DNA of 20,000 nucleotides from an uncultured virus (IMG/VR IMGVR_UViG_3300006217_000024) (IMGVR_UViG_3300006217_000024); one strand, 5' to 3'. Counted from the first letter of the stretch, positions 2,133 through 18,081 are shown. Notes: generated by a model from the sequence alone, not told the origin. Numbers and translations: made by a program.

Positions 2133-2320
2133 TACAATGTGCGACTCATTATCGTTTTCCCGTTTTTCTGGATAGTAATCTGCGCGTATTCGCTTTGCGC
2201 CCATAGCTGCCCATACAGGTCTCCGTTTGTTATGCCTATTTGAAAAGCTTTATCAGTCACGGCAAATGTCAGTCTGCTGAGTTTGCTAATGAGTGTCTGT
2301 ACTTCTTGCGATAGGGAATC
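2132..2320 (-). CDS. Silent variable C-terminal cassette 2 (start-less, 62 aa: DSLSQEVQTLISKL...KTIMSRTL)
   Basis: Begins with the same DSLSQ junction as the expressed gene; 3' part of track ORF 2132..2422. Confidence 0.85.
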   Translation of the reverse strand, partial: DSLSQEVQTLISKLSRLTFAVTDKAFQIGITNGDLYGQLWAQSEYAQITIQKNGKTIMSRTL

Positions 2321-2322
2321 AC
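2306..2322 (-). repeat. Shufflon crossover site B, GTGATTCCCTATCGCAA
   Basis: 16/17 identical to site A, inverted; contains the invertase stop codon. Confidence 0.9.
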
Positions 2323-3029
2323 GCGGCCATCGGAAGCTCTCTCGCCGGTTGCGGTGCAGGCTGTGGCGGGATGATGCCCTTGTACATGTCATCGCAGCTT
2401 TTACCAAGCACCAATCGGGCAAGCCTGCGCTGCACCCGTCGCTTGGTCGCAGCAGTGATCTCCATGTAGTATCGGTAGCAGGTCTGGATATTGCTGTGTC
2501 CCATCATCTCAGCCACGTGCTCAATGGCTGCTCCGGCCTTGATCTCTACCGCACCAGTGCGCCAGTCGATGGATTCCCAGCTGAGATAGTAGTTCTCGGA
2601 GGGACGCAACCCCAAGGCGCTCTGCAGGATTAAGGTCGGTTCAAATAGATGTCCGACAAAGCCGCGGATAAGCTTTTTCAGGCGACGCTGCGTAAGCGTG
2701 TTGAGAGGCTCTTGAGGCTTTTGGGTAATCTCGATCCTCCGTGTGGGGTCTATGGCCTCCAAGCCCTCATCTATCGCCCACCGGATGATCTGTCTGAGGC
2801 ATTTGTACGCCTTCTCTGCGCCTGATGGTCCGCGCAATGGTGTCAACTCGTCAACCCACGCTTGCACATCCTTACGCGTGATCTCGCTAACCCTGAGCGC
2901 ACCCCAGCGTGGCAATACGTGACGGTTGATGGATGACTCGTAGCCGTAAACGGTATCGGGCTTTCTGCGCTCACGTTTCTCGGTGAGGTAGTCATTGCAA
3001 ATCTCGGTGATGGTGCTCAGTTCGTACAT
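2319..3029 (-). CDS. Tyrosine recombinase (shufflon invertase), apparently with an in-frame internal deletion
   Basis: RBS AAGGAGG before ATG 3029; core-binding domain, GLRPSE (catalytic R) and MMGHSNIQTCYRYY (H, Y) present; K and HxxR segment missing. Confidence 0.85.
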   Translation of the reverse strand: MYELSTITEICNDYLTEKRERRKPDTVYGYESSINRHVLPRWGALRVSEITRKDVQAWVDELTPLRGPSGAEKAYKCLRQIIRWAIDEGLEAIDPTRRIEITQKPQEPLNTLTQRRLKKLIRGFVGHLFEPTLILQSALGLRPSENYYLSWESIDWRTGAVEIKAGAAIEHVAEMMGHSNIQTCYRYYMEITAATKRRVQRRLARLVLGKSCDDMYKGIIPPQPAPQPARELPMAA

Positions 3030-3116
3030 AGCTCCTCCTTTGAGTGACAGCAGGCGCATCATCTGAGATGCGACATGTGGAGGATTATGTGGCCGTCACG
3101 AGCGAAAGGAGAGATT

Positions 3117-3554
3117 GTGGACTGGGTTACAGCAATAGCCTGGCAGCCGATTTTGGTGATAGTCGTGCTGATGGCGTTCGACATCATCACCGGCTTCGGC
3201 GGAGCCGCAAAGGAGGGTGTCATCCAATCAGGCAAGATGCGCGAGGGGCTATGGCATAAAGCGGGATTCCTGGGGTTGGTCGTCCTTGCGATCATCTGGG
3301 AAGTCGCGGTGCTGTGGATCAATTTCGACGCCTATCTAAAGGGCGCGGGCACCATCGTGCCGGAGTTCCCGGCGGTTTCCGTTGTGTGCGCATTCATAGC
3401 CTTGATCGAACTAATAAGCATCGTCGAGAACCTATGCGTACTCAACCCATCGATCGCGACTCTGCCCTTCATAAAGCAGCTGAAGGCTCACGATCCAGCG
3501 GCCCCGGACATCAAGGTCGAGGTTGATGACGGCGACACACGCACAGACGAGTAG
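3117..3554 (+). CDS. Phage holin (holin family 4-like)
   Basis: GTG start after AAAGGAG; three hydrophobic segments; 'DIITG...SGKMREGLWHK...ELISIVENL' pattern; upstream of the endolysin. Confidence 0.85.
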   Translation: MDWVTAIAWQPILVIVVLMAFDIITGFGGAAKEGVIQSGKMREGLWHKAGFLGLVVLAIIWEVAVLWINFDAYLKGAGTIVPEFPAVSVVCAFIALIELISIVENLCVLNPSIATLPFIKQLKAHDPAAPDIKVEVDDGDTRTDE

Positions 3555-3834
3555 CCCTACAGCCAGTCAAGAGCGGCGCGTGATGCTGATCGCGGCGCTG
3601 CTTGCCTTTGGTATGGTGGCCCTTGTCATGGCCATACGCCTCGGGTCGTGGTTTCTCGCGCCCGCTGAGGTGCCACCAGAGCCAGAGACGCTCCCTGCTG
3701 TTGATCTGCCCCTCCTCACGCCCCTGCAGCGCGAGGAGGCCCGCAGAAGCGGCGTGGGTGCTTATGAGTTTGACGGCATGTGGTATGTAAACGCGGCTTT
3801 GCCGCCTGAACACTGGGAGGACTGGATTGGCTAA
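3523..3834 (+). CDS. Small single-TM protein in the lysis cassette (start uncertain)
   Basis: Hydrophobic stretch then Pro-rich region; overlaps the endolysin start. Confidence 0.6.
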   Translation: MMTATHAQTSSPTASQERRVMLIAALLAFGMVALVMAIRLGSWFLAPAEVPPEPETLPAVDLPLLTPLQREEARRSGVGAYEFDGMWYVNAALPPEHWEDWIG

Positions 3835-4669
3835 GCTATACATCATCTGCGGCCATGGAGCAGGGGACCCTGGAGCCTGCGCGGCAGGCCAGACCGAGGA
3901 GGAGCGCGTCCGTGCGCTGGCGGCGATCATCAAAGAGCGCGGCGGCGCGGATGTGGAAGTGCTTGACACATCACGCAACTGGTACGTGGATGGCGGCATC
4001 AACAGTCTCACGTTGCCAGAGGGCGCTATGCTGTTGGAGCTGCATCGTGATTGGGCGGGAGAGAGCGCACGCGGTGCCCACGTGATCATCTATGCGGGCT
4101 TCGAGGCCGATGACTTCGATAAAGCCCTGGCATCCAAGCTGTCCGCCATCCTTCCGGGACGTTCGCAGACCATCGTGAAGCGCAGCGATCTGGCAAACCC
4201 GAAGCGTGCTGCCAGACGCGGCATCAACTACCGCCTCGTCGAGGTGGGCTTCATCTCCAACGCTGAAGACCGCAACATTTTCGACACGCGCATCACCGAC
4301 ATCGCTGACGCCATTCTGGCGGCAGCTGACATCAGCATCCTGGCAACGAACCCACAGCCTGCTCAACCTGCCCCTACGCCGTCCAGCCCATCGGCATCTA
4401 GCTCGGCCGAGAAAGCTGGCTCTGGTTTCGGCGGCACCTATCGCTGCACCGTCTCCAAGCTCAACGTGCGGGACGCTCCGGGCCTCAGCGGAAACATCGT
4501 CACCAGCTATGCCAAGGGACAGACAGTCGTGCTCGATGATTGGTACGTATCACGAGATGGATACATCTGGGGACGTTACACAGGTGCTCAGAGTGGCAAG
4601 TTGCGGTATGTGGCTGTTGGCCGTGCCACCGGCAAACCAGAGCCGGATGACTATCTGATAAAGGTCTAG
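3827..4669 (+). CDS. Endolysin: N-acetylmuramoyl-L-alanine amidase (Amidase_3) with C-terminal SH3-type cell-wall-binding domain
   Basis: ICGHG, E, LELH, LVEVGFISN motifs; P/S-rich linker; 'LNVRDAPG...DGYIWGRY' SH3b pattern. Confidence 0.92.
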   Translation: MAKLYIICGHGAGDPGACAAGQTEEERVRALAAIIKERGGADVEVLDTSRNWYVDGGINSLTLPEGAMLLELHRDWAGESARGAHVIIYAGFEADDFDKALASKLSAILPGRSQTIVKRSDLANPKRAARRGINYRLVEVGFISNAEDRNIFDTRITDIADAILAAADISILATNPQPAQPAPTPSSPSASSSAEKAGSGFGGTYRCTVSKLNVRDAPGLSGNIVTSYAKGQTVVLDDWYVSRDGYIWGRYTGAQSGKLRYVAVGRATGKPEPDDYLIKV

Positions 4670-5448
4670 CTGTCCAGCTCTCTGAGGTAGATGTGGATGA
4701 TGGGGACGGTGCCCATTATCATCTCGTCGGTGGACACGGTGGCATCATCCATCTTCGAGGCTGGGTAGGTGTGCGTTCCGAAGCGCACCATGTCCTCGCC
4801 CCGCTTGGACACGAACGGCTCAAGCTGCTCGTTGTGCAAGAGAGCGTACTGACGAGGTGTGATCTTGACGAAATCATAGGTGGGGATGTCTGTTGTGTAG
4901 ACCTCCCGCCTTATGTCGATGACCTCATACGATCCGGCCACGAGGGCTTCGGCTTGATCCCAGTCGGAGTGGGCGGAGATGTCCAGATAGCGCGTGGCCC
5001 CGTCGATGTGATAGGCGATGACCTCAGCTCCATCCCTCACGAGCAAACGCCCGTTGCGGCGTCCGATGAAGTTGATGCCAGGTGCGTCATCACGAGCGAC
5101 ATCATATACCCAGCTGTCATATGCGCTCGTTGATTTGACACCCCATTTCAGGATGGTGCCCACCGCAGGGGCTAGGCCGTAGCGCGGAGACCTGCCACGA
5201 CCGCCCTCATTGTAGGTGAGGCCGCCGCTGTTGATCTCCGTACGCACGAGGTTACACGGCACGTTGTCCTGCGACATCACCGCTTCATACAGCTCCTCGG
5301 CGGTGTCCTTGACCTTCTGCGGCACACGCTCCGGTCGGCATGTGTGCCAATACTCGAAGATGCTCCTGCCACCGTGCGTGTATTGCGACCACTCAGCAAT
5401 GCTGATGTAACCGCCATCGACATACTCAGTAATCGTGTCTTTCAGCAT
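4666..5448 (-). CDS. Putative ADP-ribosyltransferase (R-S-E class)
   Basis: LVR69, KS106-T-S108 and LDISAHSDWDQ165-A-E167-ALV in canonical order; RBS GAAAGG. Confidence 0.65.
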   Translation of the reverse strand: MLKDTITEYVDGGYISIAEWSQYTHGGRSIFEYWHTCRPERVPQKVKDTAEELYEAVMSQDNVPCNLVRTEINSGGLTYNEGGRGRSPRYGLAPAVGTILKWGVKSTSAYDSWVYDVARDDAPGINFIGRRNGRLLVRDGAEVIAYHIDGATRYLDISAHSDWDQAEALVAGSYEVIDIRREVYTTDIPTYDFVKITPRQYALLHNEQLEPFVSKRGEDMVRFGTHTYPASKMDDATVSTDEMIMGTVPIIHIYLRELDS

Positions 5449-5483
5449 CCGTTCGCCTTTCTATCAGGACGGCTGTTCTGTCA

Positions 5484-5523
5484 CGCCCCATCCCTCGATG
5501 ATGAGCTCATTGAGGGATGGGCG
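5484..5523. terminator. Strong intergenic hairpin (attenuator/terminator-like) upstream of the ART gene
   Basis: CCATCCCTCGATGA (5488-5501) pairs with TCATTGAGGGATGG (5507-5520), one G-T pair; no U-tract. Confidence 0.55.
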
Positions 5524-5533
5524 GTCATCTCCT

Positions 5534-6025
5534 CTATTCGTTCGATATCTTTCGCTTGCAAGATTCAAGCGATCCCGGAGTCACGTATACAGACCCATGG
5601 ACCTTGATGGCTTTGAGCTTACCCTCCGCTATCATCTGCGTTATCCGGCCAGGGGTAACGCCGAGTGACCGAGCGGCATCTGCGGCGGATACGGTGTGTG
5701 CTTTACGAATGCCAACGCCAACGCCGCATGCGAACTGGTCTTTGTCGTAGCCATCATCGTACCAGCCGAGATCTATGCCGTCCATGTAGTAGCCGATCCG
5801 GTCCTCGTCCTGCGGGGTGAGGGCGCGGGAGGCGAAAGCCTTGCGCATGAGTAGCGCAAGCCCCGTGTCAGGATGGTAGAACACATTGTCAATCGTGAAG
5901 CCGTCAAGGCCATAGCAATCCCTGCCTTCGCGCTCAGCGTCCTTGTTAATGGCGTCCCGCACAATGCGGTAGATCTGACCATACAGGATGCCCATCTGAT
6001 AACTCTTCTCTTCGCTTACTGTCAT
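5534..6025 (-). CDS. C-terminal HTH_17-type DNA-binding domain with an N-terminal helical domain resembling Cas11c (Cas8c C-terminus)
   Basis: HTH 'VSAADAARSLGVTPGRITQMIAEGKLKAIK' is clear; the Cas11-like assignment is by-eye only. Confidence 0.7.
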   Translation of the reverse strand: MTVSEEKSYQMGILYGQIYRIVRDAINKDAEREGRDCYGLDGFTIDNVFYHPDTGLALLMRKAFASRALTPQDEDRIGYYMDGIDLGWYDDGYDKDQFACGVGVGIRKAHTVSAADAARSLGVTPGRITQMIAEGKLKAIKVHGSVYVTPGSLESCKRKISNE

Positions 6026-6034
6026 GTCATCCCC

Positions 6035-6442
6035 CTATGCTACGAGCTCGTGTGCGATCTCGGTGAAGACCTGCATAGGCCGCCAGTTCTGGTTCTCGAT
6101 GAACCACTCGGCCGACGTTTGTTCAGTGAGCTGGGAGCGCATGCGGCTGTATATCTCAGCCACGGTATCCTCCGCTCCCTCTGCACCTTTGCCGCACTTA
6201 TCTACAAAGGATTCGTAGTCTCTGATGAGCCCTGAGCGGATGTCGAGCGCCCAAGCGATCTGCTTCTCAGAGCCCTTCAGCTCGGCCATGCCATCCTCGC
6301 CGTTCTTTGCAGCCCTGCACGCGTCGCAGGGATGAGACGCAAGCCATGCTGCTTTGCGCTCACGCTCACCGTGGACGTTGGTGCCGCAGATGTTGACCGT
6401 GGTGGTATGCCCGCAGGTGTGCTCGATCTCGTACTTTGCCAT
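6035..6442 (-). CDS. Conserved phage/mobile-element hypothetical protein (CGH...CxxC Zn-finger and 'LKGSEKQIAWA.DIR' motif)
   Basis: Clean ORF, RBS GAAAGGG, first gene after the promoter at 6473-6501. Confidence 0.8.
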   Translation of the reverse strand: MAKYEIEHTCGHTTTVNICGTNVHGERERKAAWLASHPCDACRAAKNGEDGMAELKGSEKQIAWALDIRSGLIRDYESFVDKCGKGAEGAEDTVAEIYSRMRSQLTEQTSAEWFIENQNWRPMQVFTEIAHELVA

Positions 6443-6465
6443 ATCATGCCCTTTCTCTTGCTGTC

Positions 6466-6523
6466 ATTAAACATTTTATAATATTGTTTAGCGTTTGTCT
6501 ATACGATTTTGAAAATGTTTAAT
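6466..6523 (-). promoter_or_regulatory. Sigma70-type promoter flanked by a perfect 12-bp inverted repeat (operator)
   Basis: -35 TAGACA (6496-6501), 17-bp spacer, -10 TAAAAT (6473-6478); ATTAAACATTTT 6466-6477 and AAAATGTTTAAT 6512-6523; extra half-site TGTTTA 6485-6490. Confidence 0.8.
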
Positions 6524-6689
6524 CAGATAGTAGGCCAGCCTCTGCTTCTGCTGTCGCATCCATCCAATCCTCGCATGACCTGAGGGCAGCTACCACTGCC
6601 CATAGCTCCGGTATGGTGTCGGCGTATTGTTCGACGATCTGAGCGCATGCGCTGATGGTTTCAGTAACTTCTGCGGAATTGTTTAGCAT
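6519..6689 (-). CDS. Small acidic hypothetical protein (56 aa)
   Basis: RBS GAAAGGA before ATG 6689. Confidence 0.55.
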   Translation of the reverse strand: MLNNSAEVTETISACAQIVEQYADTIPELWAVVAALRSCEDWMDATAEAEAGLLSD

Positions 6690-6752
6690 GACGGGTCCTT
6701 TCACGAGGGTAATCCCACCATTTTGACTGCTAAAACAGACAGAAACCGTGAA

Positions 6753-7007
6753 ACGATGTTACATGGTTTCTAGATTGAGAATAATCTTTTACTGGTGATT
6801 CATTACGAAATGGAGCAGTTCAGCGCAGTCTTGAAAACTGTTGAAGGGAAACCTTCCGTGGGTTCGAATCCTACTTCCTCCGCCAGGTTTGACCAGTTCA
6901 GGATATGTTTTTCGTCCTTCACCTCAAATGCCCTTTACTGCGTACAAACGTACTGTTTTTACCAGTTTTTACCCTCGTTTACCAGTTAATGTTACACGAT
7001 GTTACAT
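6753..7007. other. attP region with arm-type repeats
   Basis: ACGATGTTACAT at 6753-6764 and 6996-7007; TTTACC at 6958, 6968 and 6978 (10-bp phasing); AT-rich; surrounds the tRNA fragment. Confidence 0.75.
6825..6885 (+). tRNA. 3' fragment of tRNA-Ser(TGA), attP core; not a complete tRNA
   Basis: Anticodon arm GCAGT-CT-TGA-AA-ACTGT, long variable arm GAAGG-GAAA-CCTTC, T arm GTGGG-TTCGAAT-CCTAC, 3' end TTCCTCC-G-CCA; no D arm upstream. Confidence 0.88.
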
Positions 7008-8162
7008 CTTGAATGCCTTGGCAGTCTCCCTTTTGATGTGCGCTGAGAGGTTATCAGCAAGCATCAAGGCGCCACTCCTTGTGAGCTCTTGATAGTTAGC
7101 TCCGCGCGTGGTGCCATCCGAATGACCCATTGCCAAAGATACAAGCGAATCCTCAGATCCAGCGTCTCCTTGCATTGTTGACCATGATTTCCTCAGCTTC
7201 CCTGGGTTGACGTACTTGATCCCCTTCTTGCCGCAAGAGGACTTGTATTTCGATGACACAGTAGCTGGGTTCGTATAATGCTCAGCGAGGTATATCCCAT
7301 CCTCGCAGGACTTTCCGCTCGGACAGAGAGGACCGCTCTCGGGGAGGATCTCGGCAATCCGGATGGAAAATGGCTCACCTAAAGCTACCACGCGCTTGCA
7401 GTACCTCTCATCAGTCTTAGTCTCCTTGAGGACCCTCCCATGGCGTGAGGATACGAGGGCCTTGTTGATATCAATTAGAAAGTAAAGATGCCCCTCCTGC
7501 TCTAGCCATGTGAAATCCTCAGCCAAAAGCGCACAGGCCTCCTCTACGCGAGGCCCACATCCAGCCTCAGTGAGCAGCAGGGCCTCATACTTGATGCCCC
7601 TTATGGATTTCATCCAGTCAATGACCTCATGGGCCTGGAGTAAAGGCCTTGCCTTAGGGACAGCTTTCTTCCGGTAAACGTACCTCGTACAAGGATTAGC
7701 CATATCCACCTTCTCGTGATGGATAGCGAGATTGATCATCTTCCGCCACAGGGAAAAGGCGGATTTTTGGACCCAGGGAGAATCTATCTCAGCTAGTACC
7801 TCTTCCACGCGTAGGCCGGTGGTCTCATGCACGATATCCTTAGCTATCCGAGGCTCTAGTTCCTTCTCCCAGACGCGGATGTTGTCTTCGCGAGTCCTTA
7901 TAGCAAGATCATACTTATCGAATGATGGGACTATCACCCCGCCCCAAAGCTCCTCATAGGTCATATCAGGGAGTACTCCCCCGCGCTGGATGTAGATCTT
8001 GGCTAGTTCAAGCTCAGCGTCTTCCCAGGTGCCATAGATGGTCTTGGAGGGCTGGCTCCTCTTGCCGTTCGGCTTTATATCGCCTTCCCACCAGATGCGG
8101 TGCTTCTCTTCTGGGATCAATTCCTCGATATGACCCCAGCGGACCTTGTTCCGCTTCGCCAT
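7002..8162 (-). CDS. int: Phage tyrosine integrase
   Basis: 386 aa; GPRVEEACAL (R), ETKT (K), KLRK (variant HxxR), MGH, ANY (Y); adjacent to attP. Confidence 0.9.
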   Translation of the reverse strand: MAKRNKVRWGHIEELIPEEKHRIWWEGDIKPNGKRSQPSKTIYGTWEDAELELAKIYIQRGGVLPDMTYEELWGGVIVPSFDKYDLAIRTREDNIRVWEKELEPRIAKDIVHETTGLRVEEVLAEIDSPWVQKSAFSLWRKMINLAIHHEKVDMANPCTRYVYRKKAVPKARPLLQAHEVIDWMKSIRGIKYEALLLTEAGCGPRVEEACALLAEDFTWLEQEGHLYFLIDINKALVSSRHGRVLKETKTDERYCKRVVALGEPFSIRIAEILPESGPLCPSGKSCEDGIYLAEHYTNPATVSSKYKSSCGKKGIKYVNPGKLRKSWSTMQGDAGSEDSLVSLAMGHSDGTTRGANYQELTRSGALMLADNLSAHIKRETAKAFKM

Positions 8163-9510: not shown

Positions 9511-9933
9511 TTACGCTACCTCTTCCACTTCGGGCGAAACTTGTATAGATTCCTCCCTATCTTTTTCGATACGGACGGAATCACCGTCCGACATAAGCCT
9601 TGCCGTTTGCACTAAAGCACCGCGCCCCACCTTGTTCATGGACTCGAAGTAGCCGTTGAGGGCTTCTTGGTCCGGGTCGGAATAGATGCGCTGTTCTGGT
9701 GGCGTACGTCCTCCCAATTCGTCGAGAGTGCAATTAAGGGCATCCGCAAACTTCCAAGCCTTTTCATATGAAAAAGACACAAGCCCCTGTTCATATTGAG
9801 TATATGTATTCGGGTTGATACCCAAGTGCTTCGCAAAAGCTTTCGCACTTTTGTAGCCTGCCTCTTTCCTCTTCTTCTGAAGATGCGAGCCTATTTGTTT
9901 CAAGTCCGTTTTAGTGGTCATAAAAAGCTCCAT
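9511..9933 (-). CDS. CI-like XRE-family repressor (alternative start 9921)
   Basis: 'LQKKRKEAGYKSAKAFAKHLGINPNTYTQYEQG...FADALNCTLDEL' HTH; transcribed towards int, divergent from the early genes. Confidence 0.9.
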   Translation of the reverse strand: MELFMTTKTDLKQIGSHLQKKRKEAGYKSAKAFAKHLGINPNTYTQYEQGLVSFSYEKAWKFADALNCTLDELGGRTPPEQRIYSDPDQEALNGYFESMNKVGRGALVQTARLMSDGDSVRIEKDREESIQVSPEVEEVA

Positions 9934-10071: not shown

Positions 10072-10127
10072 CTGAATATCTCGAACGATGACCTCCGTTT
10101 CCGGTGGTCATCGTTCGAGATATTCAG
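10072..10127 (+). repeat. Perfect 22-bp inverted repeat (long hairpin) in the early leader
   Basis: CTGAATATCTCGAACGATGACC 10072-10093 is the exact reverse complement of 10106-10127. Confidence 0.9.
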
Positions 10128-10383: not shown

Positions 10384-10398
10384 AGGAGTTGAGGAGCC

Positions 10399-10560
10399 AT
10401 GCCGATGATCTTGATCCAACTCACCCTCGTAGCTGCCGGTTTCTACCTCGGAGGCCCAGCCACGAAAGCAGGAGGAGCGTTCCTCTTGGCCGGAGTGGCG
10501 GCGTTCGGAATCGCTGTCGGCTGGTGGGCGTACGGAAAAGCGAAAGGAGGAAACCGATGA
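10399..10560 (+). CDS. Small membrane protein (53 aa, MPMILIQLTLVAAGFYLGG...WWAYGKAKGGNR)
   Basis: Translated by hand; RBS GAGGAG; ATGA overlap with the Cro-like gene; not in the ORF track. Confidence 0.65.
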   Translation: MPMILIQLTLVAAGFYLGGPATKAGGAFLLAGVAAFGIAVGWWAYGKAKGGNR

Positions 10561-10778
10561 AGTTCAACATGGAAACTATGGGTGCGAACATCCGCCGCCT
10601 GCGCCGGGCGAAGGACTGGACGCAAGAGGAACTAGCAGATCGTCTTGATGTGAGCGCGGCTTCCATCATCAACTATGAAAACGGCAAGGGAAGCCCCAGC
10701 TATCAAGTTGCATGGAAGATGTGTGATCTGTTCGGGGTCACCCTAGATGCGCTAGGCAGCCGTCAGACAGCGGCATAA
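10557..10778 (+). CDS. Cro-like XRE HTH regulator
   Basis: RBS AAAGGAGG; 'NIRRLRRAKDWTQEELADRLDVSAASIINYENG'. Confidence 0.9.
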   Translation: MKFNMETMGANIRRLRRAKDWTQEELADRLDVSAASIINYENGKGSPSYQVAWKMCDLFGVTLDALGSRQTAA

Positions 10779-17491: not shown

Positions 17492-18081
17492 TGGCTGGGG
17501 GATACACCTTCCATCAAAGCTATCACGAGGCTCTCAAAGCCCGTAGCCCGGAGGAGCGCCTGGCTCTCTACGATGCCATGAGCCTCTATGCCTTCGAGGC
17601 CACGGATACCGAGTTTGATGATCCTAACCTCGCCATGGCTTGGAGCCTTATCAAGCCGAACCTAGATGCTTCGCTCAAGCGGTCGAAGACCAATGCAGAT
17701 AACGCCCGTAAAAGGAGCGTTAAAGCCACATCTAAAACGACCGTACCAGCGACCGTTAAAACGGTGGCAAAACCGACCGCTAAAACGAGCGTTGAAACAC
17801 CTGTAGAAACGGTCGCTTTACCTGAATCATTAGGAGAGGAATGGAGTGGAGTAGAGAAGGAGAATCTTTCCCTTGGAAAGAAAGATTCTCCTTCTTCCCG
17901 GGCAGGAGACGGTGCGGCTGCGGCTAAGGCCGCACCGCCCCTGCCGAAAGGCTGGGAAGCGACGGGGTGCATCTGCACGCACTCGGGATGCCGTGAGAAT
18001 CAGCTCAGGGGCAGCAACGGTGAGCTATGGTGTCCGGCCTGTGACCGAGACGCACTCCGTGAGATGGGGGTGATCTCATGA
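17491..18081 (+). CDS. DUF6291-type replication initiator/replisome organiser
   Basis: N-terminus 'YTFHQSYHEALK...EERLALYDAMSLYAF'; repetitive central linker; C-terminal Cys cluster. Confidence 0.7.
   Translation: MAGGYTFHQSYHEALKARSPEERLALYDAMSLYAFEATDTEFDDPNLAMAWSLIKPNLDASLKRSKTNADNARKRSVKATSKTTVPATVKTVAKPTAKTSVETPVETVALPESLGEEWSGVEKENLSLGKKDSPSSRAGDGAAAAKAAPPLPKGWEATGCICTHSGCRENQLRGSNGELWCPACDRDALREMGVIS
17715..17820 (+). repeat. Degenerate 12-bp tandem repeats inside the replication gene (candidate origin iterons)
   Basis: Units such as ACCGTTAAAACG, ACCGCTAAAACG, AGCGTTGAAACA, CCTGTAGAAACG. Confidence 0.6.

Follow-up and report, generated by a model that had tools for sequence, protein, structure and literature searches.

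The 20,000-nucleotide stretch of DNA from an uncultured virus that was analysed here (IMG/VR IMGVR_UViG_3300006217_000024, hereafter the window) carries a self-contained operon of cargo genes, which sits between the lysis genes and the phage attachment site (attP) of a temperate tailed phage. This cassette consists of three co-oriented minus-strand genes (6442-4666), antisense to the phage late genes, a layout that the first-pass annotation had described and that the map of open reading frames (ORFs) bears out. The first gene encodes a domain which, by profile comparison, is related to two anti-CRISPR (Acr) proteins of solved structure, the second a protein with a C-terminal winged helix-turn-helix (HTH), and the third a predicted ADP-ribosyltransferase. 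We give about an even chance to the proposal that the cassette is an autorepressed counter-defence operon, similar to those in which acr genes are joined to anti-CRISPR-associated (aca) regulators. The features on which the argument turns are these.

6512-6523, unstranded: distal arm of the inverted repeat, 10 nucleotides upstream of the -35 element; candidate operator half
6501..6473, minus strand: sigma-70-like promoter, TAGACA (6501-6496), 17-nucleotide spacer, TAAAAT (6478-6473); 10/12 matches
6466-6477, unstranded: proximal arm of the inverted repeat, overlapping 5 nucleotides of the -10 element and the expected transcription start; candidate operator half
6035-6442, minus strand: gene A, ORF of 135 residues
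5534-6025, minus strand: gene B, ORF of 163 residues
5487-5521, minus strand: stem-loop between genes B and C, with 15-nucleotide arms that are 93% complementary, a 5-nucleotide loop and no U-tract after it
4666-5448, minus strand: gene C, ORF of 260 residues

Each gene is preceded by a Shine-Dalgarno-like purine run 7-9 nucleotides 5' of its ATG. Gene B starts 9 nucleotides past the stop of gene A, and an 85-nucleotide gap, with a predicted folding energy of -31.9 kcal/mol (z -2.48), separates genes B and C. The 3' end of gene C overlaps the convergent endolysin gene by 4 nucleotides. The promoter-like site lies in an AT-rich island. It had been called near-consensus, and a 10/12 site is indeed present; the match by itself, however, is not significant, as the scan returned 3 such sites against 2.2 expected. 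The claim of a perfect 12-bp inverted repeat bracketing this promoter held up in full. Its two 12-nucleotide arms are 100% complementary and stand 34 nucleotides apart, and the repeat is both non-random and unique in the window. Perfect 12-nucleotide inverted repeats with a gap of at most 60 nucleotides occur at 3 places in the window, compared with a mean of 0.095 in 200 dinucleotide shuffles; shuffling 6443-6830 (n=2000) gave such a repeat in 0.05% of cases; and the 12-mer has no other copy in the window at two or fewer mismatches. The two other perfect inverted repeats of the window are found at 10072-10127, where arms of about 22 nucleotides separate the CI-like gene from the Cro-like gene, and at 17855-17895.

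Gene A provides the link to anti-CRISPRs. Its product combines an N-terminal zinc ribbon with a C-terminal helical domain that bears the motifs GSxKQIxWAxxIR and WxIxN. C10, C39 and C42 do not vary among 52 family members, and H12 hardly does; this conservation indicates the zinc ribbon and agrees with the earlier designation of a Zn-finger protein. G57, K60, Q61, W64 and A65 are invariant too. The protein matches phrog_16123 (E value 1.7e-24) and gave no match in PADLOC; 37 homologues about as long as gene A were found, and tblastn against IMG/VR returned at least 332 relatives. When searched as a single sequence against the sequences of the Protein Data Bank (PDB), gene A found no match, and likewise nothing meaningful was returned for genes B and C. 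A profile of 25 gene A homologues, searched against the same PDB sequences, matched AcrIF23 (7fia) with an E value of 3.2e-4 and AcrIE7 (four distinct sequences) with values of about 0.01, up to 0.014, each in two colinear stretches that cover both family motifs. With a second profile, made of gene A and 51 different IMG/VR sequences, the values became 6.9e-7 for AcrIF23 and 0.003 for AcrIE7, and the AcrIF23 match became one stretch (profile 50-135, chain 55-126) in which both motifs are aligned in order. On this profile evidence, the C-terminal domain of gene A is assigned as a homologue of AcrIF23 and AcrIE7. AcrIE7 binds the single-stranded DNA (ssDNA) of the R-loop and, in type I-E and I-C assays, prevents cutting by Cas3, and its ssDNA binding needs K6 and R49 (PMC12002350). 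These two residues are located in the two motifs common with the gene A family, and the equivalent of K6 is K60, invariant in that family.

Several other proteins related to gene A were recorded. P0025 (155 residues, 146 contigs) has the zinc-ribbon N-terminus of gene A at 84% identity and an unrelated C-terminal part, a mixture that suggests domain swapping. In the Rhodobacter phage RcapMu (locus L093), a gene A homologue, gene RcapMu4, lies in the operon downstream of the Mu-type c repressor near attL, a position from which it would be expressed in the lysogen. A near-identical gene A (P0108) and a 42%-identical gene C (P0042) are each recorded on a contig of 2217 bases, and another gene A (P0113) and an 86%-identical gene B (P0003) each on a contig of 1077 bases; these two pairs may be variant cassettes with gene C exchanged.

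Gene B is the candidate regulator. It comprises an N-terminal domain of about 105 residues and a C-terminal winged HTH (residues ~108-159) of the HTH_17/excisionase type. The HTH that the first-pass annotation had placed in one of the genes is therefore real, albeit sub-threshold: it is matched in four libraries, namely by HTH_17 (E value 8.8e-5, 23.1 bits against a cut-off of 27), by the NCBIfam model 'excise' (TIGR01764, 2e-4), by PHROG excisionases (~1e-3) and by PADLOC mad1 (2.5e-6), in every case below the curated cut-off where one exists. We consider gene B, judging by this predicted domain, to be the probable autoregulator of the operon. Only near-identical homologues of the protein were found. 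It has no match in 50,697 phage records and no detected sequence similarity to any solved chain, and its AlphaFold2 model, with a predicted local distance difference test (pLDDT) score of 48, is too low in confidence for use of the fold.

The excisionase-type matches, for a gene less than 900 bp from attP, also fit another explanation, in which the cassette is a mosaic, its genes being unrelated cargo that serves no joint function. Gene A would be a general phage protein that handles ssDNA or nucleases, gene B would be the excisionase of the phage or another regulator, and gene C would modify the host in the manner of T4 Alt/Mod, taking over transcription or translation, or serve as a lysogenic-conversion factor. 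We regard this as unlikely. The repeat arms lie some 300 bp outside the zone of arm-type repeats around attP (6748-7007), a place where binding by an excisionase would not be expected, and genes A and B are only 9 nucleotides apart behind one promoter with a dedicated repeat.

Gene A neighbourhoods elsewhere bear on this question from both sides. From the tblastn relatives in IMG/VR, 80 loci were kept. Sequence relatives of genes B and C stand beside none of them, as the mosaic explanation would have it. The pairing of a gene A homologue with a protein carrying a C-terminal HTH, on the other hand, recurs in distant phages: the next gene has a C-terminal HTH in 7 of the 80 loci (L011, L021, L024, L040, L062, L075 and L019, the last being a 65-residue HTH protein), and in four (L011, L021, L075 and L017) it resembles the C-terminus of Cas8c. 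The N-terminal domain of the L011, L021 and L075 proteins shows homology to the part of Cas8c from which Cas11c comes, its C-terminal region, with E values of 5e-9 to 5e-8 against a profile of eight Cas8c C-termini; the L011 protein also matches Pfam Cas_Csd1 (2e-6, 27.2 bits, cut-off 27). These three are fused to a C-terminal XRE-type HTH; in the fourth, L017, no HTH was detected. The genes in question, all in IMG/VR, are listed below; L115 and L117 carry others.

L011, 4456-4950: Cas8c-C-terminus-like gene with HTH
L021, 4458-4943: Cas8c-C-terminus-like gene with HTH
L075, 4434-5210: Cas8c-C-terminus-like gene with HTH
L017, 4239-4826: Cas8c-C-terminus-like gene

Searching in the opposite direction, from the Cas11c-like-HTH fusions, we found 5 IMG/VR loci, and in 4 of them a gene A homologue is directly upstream. 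Of the 7 such loci examined, 5 have an integrase after the pair, which is the same attP-proximal slot as that of the cassette. Judged by sequence, the gene equivalent to gene B in these other phages is a fusion of a Cas8c C-terminus (Cas11c) with an HTH. No paper on a phage Cas11-HTH fusion was found in the literature by title or abstract. A stand-alone frame of 143 residues (L108, at G418:C1:2774129-2774488), which matches positions 440-557 only of the Cas8c model, was also seen in a host-family genome, about 3 kb from a full cas8c gene.

For gene B itself, the label Cas11c-like, which the first-pass annotation had given to this 163-residue protein, could not be shown to apply, though it is true of the positional counterparts elsewhere. 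Against gene B, the profile of eight Cas8c C-termini scored an E value of 0.61 (7 targets), hhalign gave probabilities of 0.4-3%, and Pfam Cas_Csd1 was not reported at an E value of 1 or below. The weak local alignments between gene B and Cas8c fall in colinear places.

We assign gene C, by its conserved residues, to the R-S-E (C3/VIP2-like) clade of ADP-ribosyltransferases, with a predicted activity. The protein has the ADP-ribosyltransferase fold, and R69, S106, S108, Q165 and E167 (in S106-T-S108 and Q165-A-E167) are invariant in 26 aligned sequences. The earlier identification as an ADP-ribosyltransferase is thus upheld by the catalytic triad, whereas the likeness to AcrIF11 that came with it, given the R-S-E clade, is reduced to an analogy. 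In C3 enzymes, the Q-x-E form goes with asparagine targets, and the Q-x-E motif of gene C would possibly direct it to a residue other than arginine. The ESM Atlas gave leads only; no curated family was matched, Pfam (including ADPrib_exo_Tox and ART) gave nothing at an E value of 1 or below, and PADLOC gave no match. An exhaustive HMMER search of 1.84 billion representatives returned 27 relatives, of which 25 were scanned, leaving out one self fragment and one 114-residue piece. The gene C domain occupies the C-terminus of MuF, Phage_min_cap2 (minor-capsid) or VG15 head proteins in 10 of these 25; about 9 are free-standing, with 244-282 residues; and in P0058 (465 residues) the domain stands behind a 2H phosphoesterase (2_5_RNA_ligase2, 1.7e-5; weak Acb1 match, 0.007). 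The best matches of gene C among viral models are phage ADP-ribosyltransferases, including capsid, portal and head-morphogenesis fusions and the Alt RNA polymerase ADP-ribosylases, the latter in line with a host-modifying role outside any joint function. Gene C itself has no N-terminal MuF or other head-protein domain, and no signal peptide-like N-terminus or binding component; it has extra insertions and a C-terminal beta subdomain.

The gene C family is very rare. Of 401 genomes of the host's class, only one has it, namely G001, the lysogen of the same phage; tblastn gave no match in 50,697 phage records; the IMG/VR search returned copies of the same phage only; the genome collection held one doubtful match, of 29% identity, in a Dehalococcoidia metagenome-assembled genome; and a JGI metagenome scan with P0046 found no relative. 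Such rarity suggests a recent, opportunistic capture, a further point for the mosaic explanation. Two IMG/VR contigs end, beyond the endolysin, in a distant free-standing homologue (28% identity). In one of these, L090, a 75-residue ORF precedes the homologue with a 35-nucleotide overlap; this ORF looks HTH-like by eye and has no Pfam match at an E value of 1e-4.

These relatives raise the possibility that the cassette is a toxin-immunity, toxin-antitoxin or abortive-infection unit expressed from the prophage. Gene C would then be the toxin, gene B or gene A would bind and neutralise it, the HTH of gene B would repress the operon, and the whole would stabilise the prophage or kill cells that other phages infect. 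We consider this explanation unlikely. Bxa, an enzyme of the MuF-linked class, is described as a promiscuous antibacterial toxin that needs adjacent immunity proteins, Bsi and BAH (PMC11699363), and among the structures close to gene C are toxin/immunity pairs of interbacterial ADP-ribosyltransferases (6dre, 8za7). Furthermore, type II antitoxin systems usually place their HTH protein upstream of the toxin; the arrangement in L090 also counts in favour, and the structure rows of the ESM Atlas place gene B near HicB-like antitoxin clusters, at low template modelling (TM) scores of 0.37-0.41. On the other side, the cassette has no small immunity gene after gene C, where the convergent endolysin lies instead, and contains no ADP-ribosylhydrolase or macrodomain; genes A and C have no PADLOC match; and genes B and C do not overlap but stand 85 nucleotides apart with a hairpin between them. 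In addition, the toxin explanation leaves the homology of gene A to two anti-CRISPRs without an account.

The counter-defence interpretation can be put as a sequence of events. The strong promoter would fire on entry of the phage DNA into the cell. Gene A would be made, and could act at the Cas3 cutting step of type I interference, which AcrIF23 and AcrIE7 both block, or on exposed ssDNA. The C-terminal winged HTH of gene B would then bind both 12-bp arms, which flank the -35 element and overlap the -10 element, and so turn the operon off, while its N-terminal domain may carry a second, inhibitory role, as in AcrIF24. The hairpin before gene C may lower the dose of this gene, whose product, as an NAD-dependent ADP-ribosyltransferase, would covalently modify a host protein; AcrIF11 sets a precedent for ADP-ribosylation used against CRISPR. 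For the head-fused relatives of gene C, the enzyme would be delivered into the cell together with the DNA, and this would match the early timing of a strong early promoter. The cassette does have the elements of an acr-aca plan: a candidate HTH regulator within the operon, and an inverted repeat at the promoter, a candidate operator of atypical spacing.

Several observations weigh against this interpretation. First, lying at the end of the prophage and reading against the late genes would also fit a cassette that the lysogen expresses, as the toxin explanation would have it. Second, the match of gene A to the two anti-CRISPRs is incomplete at functional sites. At the equivalent of R49 of AcrIE7, an arginine in the family consensus, gene A has Q, and the arginine is also absent in its closest relatives; AcrIF23 is reported to bind Cas2/3 through an N-terminal loop, residues 17-28 (PMC9270243), and this loop is not aligned with gene A, for the match starts at chain residue 55 and a zinc ribbon takes its place. 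Third, the gene A family is very broad, adjoining also helicases, MuF-like head proteins and a Mu-type repressor, and a 2026 preprint describes distant AcrIF23 homologues next to helicases and nucleases; the breadth of these neighbours means that the domain may have a general DNA-handling role. Fourth, the HTH of gene B is of the excisionase type and sub-threshold, the centres of the repeat arms lie 46 bp from each other, unlike the compact operators of AcrIF24, and the 80 gene A loci yielded no relative of genes B or C. Fifth, MuF-linked Bxa, as far as its description goes, is an antibacterial toxin. Finally, neither Cas1 nor Cas8c nor Cas3 scored above cut-off in the one lysogen examined, G001 (2.2 Mb, 99% complete).

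This last result also leaves the claim of a host with type I-C CRISPR-Cas unsupported in the form in which it was made. Within the host family, taking one genome per genus, 28 of 61 genomes have Cas1 and 8 have Cas8c, so phages of this lineage do meet type I-C systems. The idea of an acr operon stands in part. It gains from the homology of gene A to AcrIF23 and AcrIE7, which the first-pass annotation had not named, and from a plan like that of acrIF23-acrIF24; its Cas11c leg could not be shown for gene B, and its AcrIF11 leg is an analogy. We regard as distinctly doubtful the more ambitious version, a three-pronged anti-type I operon in which gene A would act on Cas3, gene B as a Cas11-like decoy, and gene C by ADP-ribosylating a Cascade subunit. 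In that version, the N-terminal domain of gene B would be a diverged Cas11-like decoy that poisons Cascade while the HTH shuts the operon off, as the plainly Cas8c-derived counterparts elsewhere would poison it; gene C would be an enzymatic anti-CRISPR of a new kind; and the head-fused relatives of gene C would be injected anti-defence enzymes, not toxins.

The surroundings of the cassette are those of an integrated phage. Along the window, the order is tail genes, an integrase-like remnant, holin, endolysin, cassette, attP, integrase, CI-like gene, Cro-like gene and early genes. The neighbouring features are as follows.

3075-3554, plus strand: holin
3827-4669, plus strand: amidase endolysin, convergent with gene C
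6519-6689, minus strand: small acidic ORF, 56 residues from the ATG at 6689, isoelectric point 4.05, net charge about -10
6825-6889, plus strand: attP core of 65 bp, the 3' part of a tRNA-Ser gene, common to both prophage ends in G001
7002-8162, minus strand: integrase
9511-9933, minus strand: CI-like repressor
10389-10778, plus strand: Cro-like gene

Genome G001 has 79% of the sampled words of the window in common with it, and contains the same DNA as a prophage split at the 65-bp core, with window positions 2534-6889 on one contig and 6825-20000 on another. Rfam gave a tRNA-like signal at attP and nothing more. Three related prophages with homologous endolysins have no cassette and pass directly into host genes, so the cassette is acquired, movable cargo. 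A search of 151 family genomes with the DNA of the whole window, in which two candidates per genome were scored, brought up mainly the tRNA-Ser core and fragments of related prophages. The window DNA also occurs in 20 sequencing runs from 8 studies, some labelled mouse gut metagenome and others from a single organism; 12 of the 20 are flagged as possible sources. Direct repeats flank the attP core (6748-6764 with 6991-7007, and 6889-6898 with 6958-6967 and 6978-6987) and are likely to be arm-type integrase sites. Between the tail genes and the holin, a 247-residue integrase-like ORF (2319-3062, minus strand; phrog_1, 2e-27, a partial profile match) looks like the remnant of a second integrase; G001 matches the window near it in two overlapping pieces, 2113-2544 and 2534-6889. 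The small acidic ORF is located between attP and the cassette, just upstream of the cassette promoter, with GAAAGGA 7 nucleotides before its ATG and its stop codon within the distal repeat arm. It had no notable match in Pfam, PHROG, PADLOC or NCBIfam, and in IMG/VR only its own copy was found; it may belong to the cassette. Neither this ORF nor the hairpin between genes B and C had been noted in the first-pass annotation.

Should the counter-defence interpretation be correct, the cassette would be an operon of the anti-CRISPR type that comes from phages of an actinobacterial lineage living in the gut, and gene C would represent a second class of ADP-ribosylating counter-defence enzyme, unrelated to AcrIF11. 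It would also give a role to the head-protein-fused phage ADP-ribosyltransferases, the purpose of which is debated, and would make the zinc-ribbon branch of the AcrIF23/AcrIE7 family, present in hundreds of uncultured phages, a marker for counter-defence genes. The Cas8c-derived HTH fusions that stand beside this marker would show plainly that phages have captured a Cas subunit.

Among known systems, gene C can be set beside the C3/VIP2/iota-type enzymes and T4-type Alt. It differs from these in that it has no match to Pfam ADPrib_exo_Tox even at an E value of 1, has the additional insertions and C-terminal beta subdomain, and has no export signal or binding component. With the Bxa-type MuF toxins, gene C shares, at the level of the family only, a domain found at the C-terminus of head proteins (the 10 of 25 relatives above); it differs in being stand-alone, outside the head module, with no downstream immunity gene or hydrolase. 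AcrIF11 is described as an anti-CRISPR ADP-ribosyltransferase that is diphtheria-toxin-like, has the residues H-F-H-D and targets an asparagine (PMC12421852). Like AcrIF11, gene C, with its Q-x-E motif, is an enzyme carried by a phage and could put a defence complex out of action by ADP-ribosylation; as far as that description allows the comparison, its R-S-E triad is not of the H-F-H-D or H-Y-E type, homology was not found, and the two are analogous.

The comparison for genes A and B is closer. AcrIE7 is the helical domain alone (106 residues), and its R49 corresponds to Q in gene A; both gene A family motifs align with it (E value 0.003), and the lysine equivalent to K6 is kept. The acrIF23-acrIF24 operon of a Pseudomonas aeruginosa prophage is described as consisting of a strong promoter with an inverted repeat, acrIF23, and then the gene for AcrIF24 (PMC9638941; Pinilla-Redondo 2020 preprint), in which a C-terminal HTH represses the promoter and other domains bind Cas7f (PMC9638941). 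As this operon is described, our cassette departs from it in several respects. The zinc ribbon of gene A replaces the Cas2/3-binding loop of AcrIF23; the HTH of gene B is of the HTH_17 type, with no similarity to solved chains; the repeat arms flank the promoter 46 bp apart, whereas there the repeat lies between the -35 box and the -10 box; and the cassette has a third, enzymatic gene and comes from a different bacterium. The plan is otherwise the same: the first gene carries a domain shared with AcrIF23, the second a C-terminal HTH, an inverted repeat is placed at the promoter, and there is no separate aca gene.

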